DNA of 42,753 bases from IMG/VR virus record IMGVR_UViG_2663763477_000009; one strand, 5' to 3'. Position numbers and translations under genes: made by a program. The notes below the pieces were generated by a model. That model was not told the origin of the DNA and made no database searches. It saw only the letters and a list, made by a program, of their open reading frames with translations. Position 1 is the first letter of the stretch, and every line of letters starts with the position of its first letter. This document shows, piece after piece, positions 2,482-36,746 of this stretch. This DNA is from a virus (lineage: Duplodnaviria > Heunggongvirae > Uroviricota > Caudoviricetes).

Positions 2482-5400
2482 TTAACATTCCCCCATCACG
2501 TCGCATATTTAACAGATTGCCCTGCACCCGCTGATCAACCATCCCCATAAGTGCTTTTATTGCCTGAGGGCCAATCTCTCCATTCTGGCCGTCATTTTGA
2601 ATAGTGATTTGGTATACAGGGGCATAGGTAATATCTCCGCCTCCATTACCACTTTTACTATTAATAGCTCTGACACCAAGAGAACCATCGGAAGTTCGTG
2701 TTAATGGCATAATGGCTTCCGGTCCAGCCTCACCAAAAACACCAGCCCCTTTTGCAAAAGCAAAAAATTGCGGGGAATCATAAATACCGTTCGAATACGT
2801 GCTCAATGACGGAGACTCATAAACACCGCCCTTTGCATTCGGAATAAATTTACTAATAGCACTCCCGATAGTTCCTAAAATCCCCCCAGAAGAACTGTTA
2901 CTAATGCTGTCGAAAATCCCAGTAATTGAAGCCTTTAATGCTATTCGACTAAGATCCGAAATCACGGAAGTAGCGAAAGAACGAAAATTTGCCTTGCCTG
3001 TCGTGACAAAATCACCCAGCGCATCGGTCATCCCATCAAACATCTGAGTCGTGGTTGATTTTATCTGCTCACTGATATCCTTAGTGTCATCCAGCCAGTT
3101 ATTGAATCCCTGGGAGGCACCACTAACCCAGTCTCCTGCCTGAATATCGAGCTGCTCGTTTTTCTGTCTGACAATTTCTTTTTCCCGTTCCAGAGCATCA
3201 TTCAGAGCCTGCATTTTCTCTTGAAAAACATGATCTGACATTCCACGGGATTTATCTGCATAGTCACGTTCAAGTTGCAGACGCTGATTGTTATATCCAT
3301 GTTCAATCCGCAGTAATTCCTGCTGGCGTTGCTGATTTTTATCGCCAACCCCATAACCAGCAATCTGAATATCATACCCCTGCTGACGATTATCAATCGA
3401 AGCCTGCAATGAATCACGCCATGCTGTTATTTCGGCGGATTCCTTGATTAGCCTGTTATTTTTTTCAATCGCAACATTTTTCTCCATCAACGTGGTTATT
3501 TCTTCCCGGTGTAAGAGAAGCGATTTCTGATCCTGGGTTAATTTCGATGATGGTCGTGACTCTAGGTCGGCAATCCGCTGACGCCACTTAACCAGTTCCT
3601 GTTCAGAGGAACTTAATTTAACGGTCAACTCAGCTTGTGAACTTAGTAACGCATTCTGTTGATTCAGATGATCAATCATTCGTTGGGCTGCATCATCAGA
3701 ATAACCTTTCGCCTTTGGTTGCTTTGGATCTTTATAACGCTCATTTATTTGAGCGATAAGATTATTATATTCTTCCTTTGAATACTGATTCTTTAGCTTT
3801 TCCAGTTTTGCAAGTTCACTAGCTCTCTGCTGCTCCCGGGTCTGATATTGTTTTGAAAAGGCATCTGCTCTCTGTCTGAGTTCAATTCCTTCCTGTTGTC
3901 GCTTGTTGTAATCGTTTATTGATGAATTTAGTACGTCCTGAGCAATTTTTTCTGCTTGAAGTACGCCCAATTGCTGCTTTAATCGTGCCAGCCTTTTATT
4001 TTGAGCTCCGCCATCTCCAATGCCACCTAACCCGAAAACTCCGGGTCGGGTATTTTTTTCTATTTCATCAATTTGACGGAGAACATCTGAGATTTTTTGA
4101 TCAAGGGAGGCCTCACGGCCAATATCCAGCATGGAATCCCATGCCCATTTTGCGGAGTCTGCGACAGCTTTCCATGCAGTCTCAAGATAACCAAGATTTT
4201 CTTTAATCTGGTTGGTGCGCTGGATCATTGAGGATGAGTATTCTTCTGTCGCAATGCGGGCGGCCTCCTGCTGGTTCCCTTCATCCTGTAGCGCCTTAAT
4301 CTGGTTATAAGTCGCAAGTGTCAGAAAATGGTACTGATCATTAAGTTTTGATATGGCACTGACAGGATCCTTTGCAATTTCATTGAAGTCATTAACCAGT
4401 TGTTCGGTTGATATTCCTGTTACTTCGCTCGTTTTTACTATCGCTGTCGTCACTTGCTCCAGCGAACTGCTCGCTACCTTTCCCGAACGCACAAGCTGAT
4501 TTAATACTGCCGCCGCAGCACCAGTTGTCGAATCAGCCGCATTCCCGGCACGTTGAGCTATATCGCCCAATTGCCCGCTGGTTGTCCCCAACTGATTTCC
4601 GGTAAGAATAAGAGATTTATTAAATTCGTCCTGCTCCTGAGAGCCTTTATAGTAAGCCAGTCCTAAGACCCCAACGGCTGCTGCGGCCAGGGTAAAAGGA
4701 TTAATTAATCCCAGCACATAAGAACCTACACCTTTGATCGCCGGGCCAATCCCACCGAACATATCTTTTAGCTGGCCGCCCTGCTGCATTAACACCATAA
4801 ATGGCGACTGACCAGTGGACAACCCAACAACAATATCCGTCATTTGTACAGGCAACATGCGCATAGCAAAAGCCGTTTGTTTTGCCGACATTCCGGTTTT
4901 GCTTAATTGTGATTGAGTAACCTCAAGCTCACTCCGCATAGCACGAAGTTTTCCAGAAAGCTCCTCATACATTTCAGGAGAAAGCATCCCCTTAGCTTTT
5001 GCTTCATTGAGCTGTTTCTGTTGTTCTACCAGACGATTAAAAGCAGTTCCGACAGGATCAAGTTGAGCAATCAGACGTTGCAAAGCAACAACCTGTTCAT
5101 CATGCGCTTTTGCTGCTTCTCGCTCTGCCTGAGCCTCTCCGGTAAGCTCTCGCCGTGTTTCCTGTATTTTTCGGCTATAATTCTCAAACTGAGAACCATT
5201 TATTTTCCCGGATGCAAACGCAGCATTAAGTTCATCATGCTGTTGTTCAAGATTTCTTAGCGCCGCAGCCAGAGGGTCGATCTTGTCCAGCATTCTTTGA
5301 AAGGCCTGAGCCTGCGCTTCCTGCTGGGCGGCAGCAAGTTTTCCGGCCTTCTCGGCTTCTCTCTGCGCTTGCGCAACCCCGCTCAATTCCTCTGTGGTTT

Positions 5401-32211: not shown

Positions 32212-32952
32212 TTACTTCTCAATTCCTGGCTGGACGACATTCGGACGCCAGCTCTCCCAGTTAAAATTCACCCAGCGCCCGCCGTTCATGGTCATGCGAT
32301 CCATAATCCGCTCGCCGAGCAATGTTTTCATGGCCTCATAGTTCAGGTTTGTCAGCATCCCCACGCTGCGCATCGACGCTGTCCGGCGATCAACAATCTG
32401 GTGCAGCACCACCTGCTCGTTTTTCGTCTCGCGCTGAATGCCAATTTCATCAAGAACCAGCAGATCCACTTCGCATAGTTCCCGCAAAAATTTTTCGCCT
32501 GACTGCCCATCGTCATAGCTGGCGTGCAGGGCACTCATAACATCAGCCACGGTAACCACAATCACTGTCTGACCGTCTTTCAGCAGGCGATTCCCGATAG
32601 CTGCCGCTAAGTGGTTCTTCCCGGTACCAGGTTTTCCGCTGAACGCAAAATTTGTACACCCGGTCATCAGTTCATCAGCGATGGATTTCGCCTGACTCAA
32701 CGCGTATCGCTGCGCTTCGTTCTGCACCTGGTAATTCGAAAACGAGCATTTGCGGTGCAATGGCTGGATGCCTGAGCGATTCAGAATTTTTTCCACCCGC
32801 AACTGACGATTCTGACGGTTGATCTCCTCACAACGTTTCTGGCCTTCGGAAAGTTGCCACTCGCGCCACTCCGCTACCGTCTTGAATGGCGCGGTTACAT
32901 GTGACGGGGCCAGTCTGCGGATACGTTCAAGAACGTCGCCTGTCGCAATATT
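32212..32952 (-). CDS. ydaV: DnaC-like helicase loader (lambda P functional analogue), YdaV-like
   Basis: Walker [10 protein letters not shown] and Walker B LLVLDEIG; an internal ATG (MKNIATG...) preceded by AGGGGGGAA; C-terminal 246 codons of a continuous 536-codon ORF. Confidence 0.8.
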
Positions 32953-33771
32953 TTTCATGGTCCGTTCCCCCCTGAAGCCTGGCGGGATCGCACTGTCCGG
33001 CAACGAGACGGTGTTAACCTGTCGGAGCAACGTCTCAGGTCGAACACCTTTCGGCGCGAACAAGCCCTGGTATTCATTGGCGATGCTGTGTCGAATCACC
33101 TGCTCAGGTGAAAAACCCTGCTGGCGGAATTTTTCCAGCTCCCGTATCGCCCCGTTAGCGCCCTGCTCCGTTCGAATCGGTTTTCGCAATGCCTGGCGAA
33201 ATTCAACCCACTCACGCCAAAGCGAGACAGAAATCCAGTTCGGCAAAGCAATATCCAGAGGGTCAAACTTTTTGACACCTCGATTCCCCCGGGGGGGATT
33301 TAGGGGGGGATCTGTTTTTAGATCTTTATCTGTATCTTTATTAGTTGCCTTTGTGTTGACATCATGTTCAAACACCACTTCAACATCTGTTTGAACACCT
33401 GTTAAATTTCTCTCTTGTTTTGTTTGAACATCTGCTTCCTTTCTGCTTCTTCTGGCCTGAACAGATGCTTTTCCTGCGGCTGATTTTTTGGTTAATTTTT
33501 CCCTGACTGATGCCAGATCTTCCTCAATCCGAAGATGCACCCATTCCTCGCCGTTATCGCAAAAAAACTCCTGCAAGGATGGTTCAACATCAGCCCATCG
33601 CTCGTTAGTCAGACGGGCAATTTTTGCCAGCCTGTTTTTAGGTATTGGCTTTCCTGTTTGCCAGTAATTGAACATCAGCAACAAATACGCACCATGCTCC
33701 TCTGCTGACAAATGCATGGTGTCAGCCAGGTAATCAGCTATGTACAGTTGCATGTATGGTAATGCGGCCAT
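32953..33771 (-). CDS. ydaU: Replication initiation protein (O-like), YdaU-like; reads through into ydaV without a stop in this window
   Basis: N-terminal segment MAALPYMQLYIADYLADTMHLSAEEHGAYLLLM; iteron-like repeats inside its coding region. Confidence 0.7.
33285..33470. repeat. Putative replication origin inside the O-like gene: iteron-like repeats plus C/G homopolymer tracts
   Basis: Three or more copies of TGTTTGAACA and its complement, repeated ATCTG elements, and the tract cccccggggggg-atttag-ggggggg. Confidence 0.45.
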
Positions 33772-33834
33772 AATTGCCCCGTATGATGCTGCCCGGTGGC
33801 TTAGAATAAGCACAAACAGCATGGAAACTTTTGC

Positions 33835-34257
33835 TTAATGAACAATGACAGAATCGTCGGAAGACCCGCCGCCGCTGAAATGCGCTTTCCGGTAAACGGC
33901 TTGGACTGCATCATCATGCGCATCAATTGCCGTACTTAACGCTTCCTGCGCCGCCAGTAATGCACGGCGTTCCAGGGTATCGAAGATGCAGAGTCGGTGA
34001 CGCAGCTCGCGCGGAAGGATTGCCAGAATTGCTGGGATCAGCTTCTGAATTTTTTCTCTTTGCGTTTTCGTTTCACCTTTCAACCAACGGTGATAGATAT
34101 TCTGCTGATTATTCCAGTCCTTGCCTGGTACCAGGGGCAATTCGCCGCCCCCCTGGCGCAGATATTCTTCAGTAATGGCATTGGCTACCCATGCCTGCCC
34201 TTTTTCGGCTGCCAGGGCTAACAACACTGACTCGATGTGCTCATGCTTGATTTTCAT
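33835..34257 (-). CDS. ydaT: YdaT (cII-position protein of the Rac immunity region)
   Basis: 140 aa, matching the remembered YdaT length; directly downstream of ydaS. Confidence 0.75.
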   Translation of the reverse strand: MKIKHEHIESVLLALAAEKGQAWVANAITEEYLRQGGGELPLVPGKDWNNQQNIYHRWLKGETKTQREKIQKLIPAILAILPRELRHRLCIFDTLERRALLAAQEALSTAIDAHDDAVQAVYRKAHFSGGGSSDDSVIVH

Positions 34258-34508
34258 GAATCAACTCCCATCAGCTTTTTCGTAGTAGTTTTATTTCTGC
34301 CAATAGTTAAAATTACATCAGCAGAAAATAATCCGTTTGATGCATGAGCGATTTTTTCAGCGTAATTTGTTTCGCCGGTATATTCTGTGCGAGGCAATTT
34401 TCCGTTATCCATCCATTTGTAGATTGCTCTTTGGCTGACACCACAAACGTCGGCCACAACAGAAACGCGAACAGTTTTGATTACATCTTCAAGTGTTTTC
34501 TGGTTCAT
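34254..34508 (-). CDS. ydaS: YdaS (Cro-like HTH protein)
   Basis: HTH segment VCGVSQRAIYKWMDNG; divergent from racR; start taken as MNQKTLED (the track ORF extends further upstream). Confidence 0.7.
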   Translation of the reverse strand: MNQKTLEDVIKTVRVSVVADVCGVSQRAIYKWMDNGKLPRTEYTGETNYAEKIAHASNGLFSADVILTIGRNKTTTKKLMGVDS

Positions 34509-34569
34509 ATCACCCTCACAATGTGAACTTTGAGTACATGCTATAACAGAACTGACAGTACATTCAAGA
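34509..34569. promoter_or_regulatory. Divergent racR/ydaS promoter-operator region (OR-like)
   Basis: Two direct AGTACAT repeats about 24 bp apart (around 34534 and 34558) in the 60-80 bp between divergent repressor-like and Cro-like genes. Confidence 0.4.
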
Positions 34570-35007
34570 GTGAATATCATTGAACTTATGGTTCATGAAG
34601 ATAAAGCGCGTAAAGAGTTCGCCAGTAGGCTTGCGCTAGCCTGTGAAAACGCTGGTTATGAACAACATGGAAGGCAGGCAGAAATTGCCCGTCGAATGAA
34701 ATTAACACCAAAAGCGGTTAGCAAATGGTTTAATGGCGAAACAATTCCTCGCCGAGAGAAATTAAGGGAATTAGCAACACTCATTGGAACAACACCAACC
34801 TATCTTTTGGGAGAGGATACAGAAGAAAGTGGACAGGTACGTTTCTATCAGGAGTTAAATCCAAGACAAAAAATCATCATTGACCTTCTGGACGAGCTCC
34901 CTGACAGTGAGACAGATGAACTTTTAAAAACTCTTGAGGAGAAAAAACAGAAGTACAATGCAATTTACGAAGAGCTAGCACGAAAGAAAAAACAAAAAGC
35001 CTCTTAA
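34570..35007 (+). CDS. racR: Prophage repressor RacR (cI-like, HTH)
   Basis: HTH segment RQAEIARRMKLTPKAVSKWFNG; divergent from ydaS; the track start is a GTG and the first ATG is 18 nt further in. Confidence 0.75.
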   Translation: MNIIELMVHEDKARKEFASRLALACENAGYEQHGRQAEIARRMKLTPKAVSKWFNGETIPRREKLRELATLIGTTPTYLLGEDTEESGQVRFYQELNPRQKIIIDLLDELPDSETDELLKTLEEKKQKYNAIYEELARKKKQKAS

Positions 35008-35068
35008 ACCAGCATAAATCCGGTAGCGTCCCCCTCCGGGTTTGTGCTTCACTTTATCCCATCTCATT

Positions 35069-35125
35069 TTTTTACACACAAAATGTACTTATAGTACTTT
35101 ACATCAATGAACACAAAGTACATTA
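35069..35125 (+). promoter_or_regulatory. Early-left promoter/operator candidate (OL/PL-like)
   Basis: Cluster of GTAC-centred inverted repeats (AAATGTACTT / AGTACTTTACAT / AAAGTACATT) with TTTACA and TATAGT hexamers, between racR and the rightward early genes. Confidence 0.35.
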
Positions 35126-35297
35126 TATACCTACCAACCCACCCCGCCCCACAGAACGCAGGGCAATACTTCGAGTTACCAGGCAGTGGTCAGGGGTTAA
35201 GTAGCCAGCCCGAGGCGTATGAACATGACGGCAGGGTTCAGATTTTGCAGTGCAGCAGGTTTCAGTTCCGCCACCCGGCGTTAAGGGGAGAGATAAG

Positions 35298-35432
35298 ATG
35301 GTGCATTACGAAGTAGTTCAGTATTTGATGGATTGTTGCGGTATCACTTACAACCAGGCTGTGCAGGCTTTACGCAGCAACGACTGGGATCTCTGGCAGG
35401 CAGAAGTCGCTATACACAGCAACAAGATGTGA
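35298..35432 (+). CDS. Small Rac early protein (YdaF/YdaG family, 44 aa)
   Basis: GGGGAG RBS before the ATG; reads MVHYEVVQYLMDCCGITYNQAVQALRSNDWDLWQAEVAIHSNKM. Confidence 0.5.
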   Translation: MVHYEVVQYLMDCCGITYNQAVQALRSNDWDLWQAEVAIHSNKM

Positions 35433-35442
35433 GATTCGCAAA

Positions 35443-35598
35443 ATGCAAAAAATCGACCTCGGCAACAACGAATCCCTGGTGTGCGGCGTGTTCCCCAACC
35501 AGGATGGAACGTTCACTGCCATGACGTATACCAAAAGCAAAACATTTAAAACCGAAACTGGTGCGCGCCGATGGTTGGAGAAGCACACAGTAAGCTAA
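35443..35598 (+). CDS. Small Rac early protein (YdaF/YdaG family, 51 aa)
   Basis: Reads MQKIDLGNNESLVCGVFPNQDGTFTAMTYTKSKTFKTETGARRWLEKHTVS; below the track cutoff; convergent with sieB. Confidence 0.45.
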   Translation: MQKIDLGNNESLVCGVFPNQDGTFTAMTYTKSKTFKTETGARRWLEKHTVS

Positions 35599-36083: not shown

Positions 36084-36524
36084 ATCAATAACTCTCAACT
36101 GTAAGGGTATTGAAATGTTAACACAAGCTCTCGCTGTAGGGGTATAGCCGAGACCACCGAAGCCCGGAGGTGGTGAAATAAAACCGGGCACAACACGAAG
36201 GCGCATTTCCGATATCCATAAAGAGTCGGTCTTGTCTGTTAAATTTAAATGGTGGGAGTGCGCCTCCGGTTGTAAATAACGACATTGCTGTGTGTAGTCC
36301 TGGCGGCATCAGTTTTTTTCTTGAAGTTCGGCTGATGTCCGCCCTTTTTAAAGTGAATTTTGTGATGCGGTGAATGCGGCTAAGCGCACGTGGCACAGTT
36401 AAAAGTCATGTTAGTCCTTATTGGTTTGGGTGGGAAAGCCGACTGTAATTGTTAACTGGTTGCAGTCACCTGGAGGCACCAGGCACCGCATCAACAAAGT
36501 TCATTTGTAAAAATGGAGATAATT

Positions 36525-36746
36525 ATGATTGCACATCACTTCGGAACTGATGAAATACCACGTCAGTGTGTGACTCCTGGCGATTATGTTCTTCATGAAG
36601 GCCGGACATATATTGCCTCGGCAAACAATATTAAAAAGCGAAAACTATATATTCGTAACCTGACCACAAAAACATGCATTACTGACCGCATGATTAAAGT
36701 CTTCCTCGGTCGTGATGGTTTACCTGTAAAGGCGGAGTCATGGTGA
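36525..36746 (+). CDS. kilR: Cell-division inhibitor KilR
   Basis: 73 aa reading [46 protein letters not shown]..., recognised as KilR; its TGA stop overlaps the ydaE ATG. Confidence 0.85.

Follow-up and report, generated by a model that had tools for sequence, protein, structure and literature searches.

Operators and promoters are annotated in the immunity region of phage HK022 (GenBank X16093; Oberto et al., 1989), and the record of phage HK75 is annotated as equivalent. Knowledge of this operator family and of its layout dates back to the sequencing of the HK022 region (X16093) and the study of its repressor (Carlson and Little, 1993, as cited in PMC8053113). The locus analyzed here lies in a stretch of viral DNA of 42,753 nucleotides (IMG/VR record IMGVR_UViG_2663763477_000009; the whole stretch is called the window), where a preliminary description had noticed AGTACAT-type repeats on both sides of a repressor gene and had suggested that this common motif marks sets of repressor operators at divergent and early-left promoters. 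The locus follows the general lambdoid architecture, with a repressor gene and a cro-like gene diverging from a shared, multipartite set of right operators (OR), and a second set, the left operators (OL), at the early-left promoter (PL) beyond the repressor gene. Based on sequence comparison, positions 34264-35135 very probably form a relative of the HK022 immunity region, in which five 15-bp dyad operators for the module's own repressor contain the repeats as half-sites. The suggestion of two operator sets thus gains support from homology to HK022, a matrix scan and conservation, but the repressor is not RacR of the Escherichia coli K-12 Rac prophage, as had been assumed. The sole unusual trait of the switch is that its repressor lacks the S24 self-cleavage domain.

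The two direct AGTACAT copies reported for a divergent region of 60-80 bp are located on the plus strand at 34533-39 and 34557-63, in an intergenic region of 79 bp between start codons at 34508 and 34588. Downstream of the repressor gene, three inverted GTAC-centered copies had been described. All the quoted strings are present, including the inverted copy ATGTACT at 35083-89, AGTACAT at 35117-23 and AGTACTTTACAT at 35094-35105, but they amount to two operators and not three, as AGTACTTTACAT joins the right half of a single operator (OL2) to the -35 hexamer TTTACA. Counted over the whole window, AGTACAT is not enriched (5 matches compared with 3.7 expected, a count equalled or exceeded in 31 of 100 shuffles). 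The 7-mer was therefore rejected as the binding unit and a 15-bp dyad, TGWAC-N5-GTWCA, was adopted, of which each repeat is a part. The repeats seen earlier are genuine, but the 7-mer is too short a unit, and a site over the repressor ATG (OR3, 34581-95) had been missed. Perfect dyads occur three times in 42.7 kb, and all three fall in the control regions flanking the repressor gene (34524-38, 34581-95 and 35108-22), compared with about 0.16 expected by chance in the window as estimated from the pattern information. When one mismatch is allowed, five of the nine dyads in the window lie in the control regions, the one-mismatch pair being 34548-62 and 35084-98, and the other four are scattered elsewhere. 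A symmetric weight matrix trained on 13 operators alone (from HK75, Klebsiella phage Kp4856-1 and a Salmonella phage) ranks the same five sites first to fifth when the whole window is scanned (20.5, 16.6, 16.3, 15.9 and 12.3 bits), and the next match scores 10.2.

As the preliminary description had proposed, the motif was compared across related immunity regions, where the half-sites are kept while the spacers vary, and where the geometry is kept in Klebsiella and Salmonella relatives. Polymorphism was sampled in 80 IMG/VR contigs, chosen for a repressor of at least 99% identity, and in Escherichia phage Tritos, which gave 15 OR and 37 OL haplotypes. Among non-coding positions, 5 of 45 in half-sites vary, all in rare haplotypes, compared with 9 of 22 in spacers (Fisher p=0.009) and 28 of 107 elsewhere (p=0.025); as the haplotypes are not independent, the p-values serve as a guide only. 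HK022, HK75 and the Klebsiella and Salmonella relatives share an identical geometry within flanking sequence that has diverged. Salmonella enterica also carries short-form repressors, 62-65% identical to the one in the window, and in these loci of ~4.4 kb dyads with at most one mismatch are confined to three OR sites, again 24 and 33 bp apart, and a pair of OL sites with TTTACA. There, the OL pair is found ~900 bp beyond the repressor, past an inserted cassette of a HigB-like gene and a helix-turn-helix (HTH) gene, with flanks that are otherwise unrelated. As the pair is displaced by ~900 bp and still stands beside TTTACA, OL tracks PL and not the repressor gene, which is the behavior expected of an operator. 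The cassette, a HigB-toxin-like gene with an HTH gene between the repressor and OL/PL (positions 2553-3220 in locus L088 and 2588-3255 in locus L089), resembles the paaR2-paaA2-parE2 arrangement of CP-933P.

These comparisons bear on the alternative that the repeats are accidental GTAC strings in AT-rich promoter DNA, with no dedicated binding protein. The lack of window-wide enrichment of AGTACAT is what would be expected in that case, and OL1, taken alone, is only marginally above the shuffle level. However, four of the five AGTACAT matches (34533, 34557, 35083 on the minus strand, and 35117) cluster in the two short non-coding stretches flanking the repressor gene, the dyads there include perfect ones, and an independently derived matrix places the five sites at the top. 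The identical geometry despite diverged flanks, and the conservation of half-sites relative to spacers, are likewise difficult to reconcile with chance, which we regard as extremely improbable.

The divergent control region matches HK022 position for position. The centers of its three sites (34531, 34555 and 34588) are 24 and 33 bp apart, as are the oR centers in HK75 (2438, 2462 and 2495) and X16093 (437, 461 and 494), and all are 15-bp dyads with half-sites TGAAC/TGTAC ... GTWCA at a 5-bp separation. OR1 (TGAACTTTGAGTACA, 34524-34538) is a perfect dyad scoring 16.3 bits at the position of HK022/HK75 oR1, which in HK75 reads TGAACTTATGGTTCA and, like OR1, lies 16 bp from the cro ATG. The first AGTACAT forms the right half of OR1, which also covers the predicted start region of the leftward promoter PR. 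OR2 (AGAACTGACAGTACA, 34548-34562; GGAACTGATAGTACA in HK75) has one mismatch to the dyad and scores 15.9 bits; its right half is the second AGTACAT, and its center is 24 bp from that of OR1, as in HK022 and HK75. OR3 (TGAACTTATGGTTCA, 34581-34595), a perfect dyad and the best match in the window at 20.5 bits, overlaps the repressor ATG at 34588-90. The sequence of oR3 is identical in HK022, HK75 and the window, and in all three it is 33 bp from oR2 and lies over the cI ATG.

Two promoters are predicted around these sites. PR was placed by eye and by homology to HK022 pR on the minus strand at 34540-34567, with a -35 of TTGAAT (34567-62), a 16-bp spacer and a -10 of TATAGC (34545-40) preceded by TGT. 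We infer this placement from offsets to oR2 and oR1 that equal those of the annotated HK022 pR -35 and -10; in both HK022 and the window, the -10 is between oR1 and oR2, and the -35 starts at the last base of oR2. OR2 is thus situated between the PR -35 and -10, and it contains the -35 of a predicted PRM-like promoter for the repressor gene (CTGACA-17-TATCAT, plus strand, 34552-34580), which a promoter scan detected with 10 of 12 matches. Positions T1, A2 and T6 of the PRM -10 are invariant across six aligned immunity regions. The PRM -10 ends 7 nt before the repressor ATG, and the repressor mRNA is therefore predicted to be leaderless, a form of repressor transcript documented for K-12 racR (PMC9638921) and paaR2 (PMC8630535).

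Downstream of the repressor gene, the promoter-like hexamers mentioned in the preliminary description were recovered by a promoter scan as TTTACA-17-CATTAT (plus strand, 35098-35126, 9 of 12 matches). This PL-like early-left promoter points towards ydaF, kilR, racC and recE, its hexamers occupy the positions of HK022 pL, and its -35 TTTACA (35098-35103) is invariant in six relatives. The corresponding promoter in HK022 and HK75 is TTTACA ... CATCAT. OL2 (TGTACTTATAGTACT, 35084-35098; one mismatch to the dyad, 16.6 bits) abuts the PL -35 and contains AAATGTACTT and the first part of AGTACTTTACAT; its counterparts are TGTACTATTGGTACT in HK022 and TGTACTACTGGTACT in HK75. OL1 (TGAACACAAAGTACA, 35108-35122; perfect dyad, 12.3 bits) contains AAAGTACATT, sits in the PL spacer overlapping the -10, and corresponds to TGAACTTTAAGTACA in HK022 and TGAACTTTAGGTACA in HK75. 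Both in HK022 and in the window the two oL sites are 24 bp apart, the pL -35 shares its first base with the last base of the distal site, and the end of the proximal site runs into the -10. The HK75 record annotates a third oL site while X16093 marks two, and no dyad-like counterpart of HK75 oL3 was found in 35040-35083. Between the repressor stop codon and OL2, a hairpin at 35011-35048 (plus strand) is predicted to fold with -19.4 kcal/mol (z=-5.2, with 0 of 200 shuffles as stable), and the common polymorphisms at 35029-32 fall in its loop. The T-run 3' of the hairpin is poor and a simple terminator scan called none in this DNA; nonetheless, the hairpin is probably the terminator of the repressor transcript ahead of PL, shielding the early-left genes.

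In the mechanism that we infer, from binding itself to the order in which sites would fill, dimers of the 139-amino-acid (aa) repressor at OR1 and OR2 would block leftward transcription from PR into the cro-like gene, ydaT and the replication genes, and repressor at OL2 and OL1 would block rightward transcription from PL into ydaF, kilR, racC and recE. OR3 would cover both the transcription start and the translation start of a leaderless repressor mRNA from the PRM-like promoter, leading to negative autoregulation, and the 84-aa Cro homologue would be expected at the same sites. The hairpin at 35011-48 would end the repressor transcript before PL. Such combined control through OR and OL has been shown in the Rac-like prophage CP-933P (PMC8630535).

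The proteins agree with an HK022-type switch. The immunity repressor (34588-35007, plus strand, with the RefSeq start in strain 1428) consists of an XRE-type HTH domain and a short helical C-terminal tail. Among phage genomes searched by tblastn, that of Escherichia phage Tritos encodes a 'CI repressor' of 100% identity, and the window repressor shares 62% identity with a Klebsiella phage CI, 60% with a Salmonella phage CI, 51% with a 933W-type Shiga toxin (Stx) phage cI and 46% with HK75 CI (residues 4-102), where these partial identities cover the N-terminal part alone (the first ~73 to ~102 residues). HK75 CI is itself annotated as similar to HK022 cI. The recognition helix reads TPKAVSKWFNGE in the repressor and TPKAISKWFNGE in HK75 CI, one conservative residue apart, and SSKGVSKWFNAE in the 933W type. 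In the 933W repressor, K42 and K46 are required for specific recognition of the half-site nG(A/T)ACT (PMC3317979), and both lysines and the half-site are conserved in the repressor and operators of the window. The divergent 84-aa protein (34254-34508, minus strand, a RefSeq coding sequence in strain 1428) is 58% identical to HK75 Cro (E=1e-32), which is annotated as similar to HK022 cro. It occupies the position of ydaS but is not its homologue.

Near the Ala-Gly self-cleavage region the repressor ceases to be homologous to HK022-type CI, and from there a predicted helical tail of ~40 residues (~100-139) takes the place of the S24 domain. Accordingly, Pfam finds HTH_3 alone in the repressor, compared with HTH_3 and Peptidase_S24 (E=2.7e-19) in HK75 CI. 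An AlphaFold2 model (pLDDT 81.6) has a five-helix HTH domain at residues 2-73, a disordered linker at 79-87 and a helical hairpin at 92-138. PDB sequence and fold searches with the C-terminal tail returned generic XRE HTH matches alone, and SinR-type and Salmonella-phage-repressor-type architectures align to the repressor solely at a high root-mean-square deviation. As the S24 domain is lacking, RecA-stimulated autocleavage of the repressor is unlikely. The same short form is found in phage Tritos, and induction may therefore proceed by another route, without RecA-stimulated cleavage. A literature search returned no published study of the 139-aa repressor or of phage Tritos. A tentative interpretation, which we consider possible though somewhat less probable than its opposite, is that the repressor arose naturally from an HK022-type CI by a domain swap, in which the HK022 operator specificity was kept and the RecA-sensitive S24 domain was replaced from the cleavage site onwards by a short helical oligomerization tail.

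Some observations weigh against the reading of the module as an HK022-type switch controlled by its own repressor. OL1 scores 12.3 bits, and mononucleotide shuffles of the window contain on average 0.79 sites that score at least as high. The PR -10, TATAGC, lacks the conserved final T and has polymorphisms inside it, and a simple promoter scan of the window did not call the predicted PR; because the -10 is poor, uncalled and polymorphic, PR is possibly a weak promoter. As the predicted PRM -35 falls within OR2, activation of PRM by the repressor and repression alone are both compatible with the layout. HK022 CI binds OR and OL cooperatively with looping between them, according to the summary given in PMC8053113 (citing Carlson and Little, 1993), but as the C-terminal part of the window repressor differs from that of HK022 CI, neither cooperativity nor looping can be assumed for it.

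The poor and polymorphic PR -10, together with the absence of a canonical CI C-terminal domain and the often defective nature of Rac-like elements, would also fit a different explanation, in which the operators either survive as an inactive relic or serve chiefly the Cro-like protein, or superinfecting phages of the HK022 type, and not the resident repressor. Yet the repressor gene has an intact reading frame, 80 viral contigs encode the protein with at least 99% identity, the sequenced phage Tritos carries this module with a repressor of identical sequence, and the half-sites are under constraint. Furthermore, DNA matching 34200-35450 with a coverage of at least 80% is present in 1038 of 5426 complete E. 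coli genomes, and K-12 cells that lose the analogous repressor die, with derepression of the entire early-left operon (bioRxiv 10.64898/2026.09.06.749655; PMC5700373). A relic, or use mainly by other proteins, is therefore improbable in our view, and an active switch operated by the resident repressor is the preferred explanation.

The genes had been identified in the preliminary description as racR and ydaS, which would make the repeats operators of RacR. This assignment is understandable from the gene positions in a Rac-like backbone, where ydaT, ydaU and ydaV flank the pair to one side and ydaF, sieB, kilR, racC and recE to the other. By gene content the window carries a Rac-like prophage in the orientation opposite to that in K-12. 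Its minus-strand flank holds ydaV/ydaU, ydaT (33835-34257) and the 84-aa HTH gene, and on the plus-strand side the 139-aa HTH gene is followed by a 44-aa open reading frame (ORF), ydaF, sieB (minus strand), kilR, ydaE, racC and recE, with the starts of the two HTH genes taken from the RefSeq annotation of the strain 1428 genome (99.8% identical). Aligned with K-12 MG1655, the DNA is near-identical as far as 34264, just within ydaT, and from 35135 onwards, but between these limits the two are unalignable. The exchangeable immunity module (34264-35135) thus comprises the cro-like gene, OR, repressor, terminator and OL/PL. A position just past PL is where immunity-specific DNA would be expected to end. 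Since the right limit lies ~9 bp past the PL -10, OL and PL are part of the exchangeable unit.

Within the module, the proteins have a short HTH stretch alone in common with those of K-12. The repressor shares 12 of 33 identities with RacR in the HTH (E=1e-4), and the Cro-like protein has no significant similarity to YdaS (6 of 18 identities, E=0.028). The operators differ as well. RacR operators, (T/A)TAGGC-n3-GCCTA(T/A), were footprinted in the racR-ydaS intergenic region (PMC9638921) after the repeats had first been noted (PMC5700373), and a search allowing up to two mismatches finds five in the K-12 locus and none in the window. Sites of the form TTAGGC-n3-GCCTAA were accordingly discarded as candidates for the window repeats. 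The racR/ydaS assignment is thereby already refuted at the sequence level, and operation of these sites by RacR has next to no probability. Because RacR operators are absent and the proteins are essentially non-homologous, purified K-12 RacR is expected not to bind the window fragments in an electrophoretic mobility shift assay.

The resemblance to K-12 Rac is instead one of organization. Prophage backbone and gene positions are the same, the K-12 repressor mRNA is leaderless, its repressor is short and without S24, and three intergenic 6-n3-6 dyads are found with the third over the repressor ATG (PMC9638921; PMC5700373), whereas the proteins are unrelated beyond the short HTH stretch, the operator sequence is TTAGGC-n3-GCCTAA, and the intergenic region is 123 bp compared with 79 bp in the window. 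Downstream of racR in MG1655, we also observed RacR-type dyads, TTAGGCATAGCCTAT and TTAGGCATTACCTAT, at positions 3074-88 and 3099-3113 of the K-12 locus (L002). They bracket a near-consensus promoter, TTGACA-17-TATAGT (3088-3116), and 3074-3116 is equivalent to 35084-35126 in the window. These dyads look like an OL/PL set with the geometry of the HK022 oL sites, giving K-12 the same OR and OL logic as the window with a different operator sequence. The RacR literature that we found describes the racR-ydaS intergenic operators alone. Silencing of racR derepresses kilR, racC, recE, recT and neighboring genes (bioRxiv 10.64898/2026.09.06.749655), which is consistent with a RacR-controlled PL in K-12.

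Some further features of the prophage were observed outside the module. Just past PL, an early-left leader of ~160 bp (35135-35298) is kept across differing immunity types, and many complete E. coli genomes match 35132-35289 alone, a match without annotation. The leader contains a short ORF from the ATG at 35229, whose length differs among relatives. A search for put-like or other structured RNA in 35133-35300 gave no Rfam match and a fold no better than shuffles (z=+1.36). Just upstream of kilR, two Rfam matches fall below their gathering thresholds, DicF at 36289-36344 (39.1 bits, threshold 48) and STnc100 at 36346-36532 (35.5 bits, threshold 47), and phage Tritos has annotated DicF and dicB at the corresponding place. 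On the other side of the module, ydaU and ydaV are fused in frame into a 536-aa ORF (32212-33822, minus strand), where two substitutions at 32961-32967 eliminate the stop codon of ydaU (TAA to GAA) and a neighboring TGA relative to K-12 and strain 1428.

As the module occupies the Rac position in about a fifth of complete E. coli genomes, its correct naming is of practical value. A racR/ydaS label would wrongly transfer results from K-12, such as the RacR operators, the lethal cross-talk with C proteins and the 'toxin' labels, to a switch that is of the HK022 type and has a DNA specificity different from that of K-12 RacR. The analysis also provides precise coordinates for OR1-3, OL1-2 and the predicted PR, PRM and PL that would control kilR, recE/recT and ydaT. 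A CI-type DNA-binding domain on a tail incapable of self-cleavage raises questions on prophage induction and on protection against HK022-like phages. If the domain-swap interpretation is true, the host would be constitutively immune to phages of HK022 immunity in a manner that is not switched off by SOS, and induction would need another route, e.g., an antirepressor, with the functional phage Tritos using the same repressor.

Collectively, the closest described system is the HK022/HK75 immunity region, which shares with the window the operator dyads and their spacing, a CI DNA-binding domain with a near-identical recognition helix, and a homologous Cro (58%). The two differ in that HK022 CI has an S24 domain for self-cleavage and oligomerization while the 139-aa repressor of the window has none, and in that HK022 has the put RNA site and nun after pL, whereas PL in the window is followed by a Rac-type leader common to K-12, ydaF, sieB and kilR. 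The backbone of the window is Rac-like, with ydaT, ydaU/V and recE. The 933W/Stx cI system has a DNA-binding domain 51% identical to that of the window repressor, the half-site nG(A/T)ACT with K42 and K46, and three OR and two OL operators with oR3 over the cI ATG (PMC3317979). It differs in the outer operator positions, which are C/G (CGTAC...GTACG), in a repressor with an S24 domain, and in position 41 of the recognition helix, which is Ser compared with Pro in the window repressor. The PaaR2-YdaS-YdaT switch of CP-933P has a different repressor and different operators, 18-bp palindromes of the GTTTAGTAA type. However, it is also found in a Rac-like prophage, its repressor mRNA is leaderless, a toxin-antitoxin pair stands between repressor and PL as in the Salmonella relatives, and a short repressor has been shown experimentally to control PR, PRM and the distal PL through common repeats (PMC8630535).

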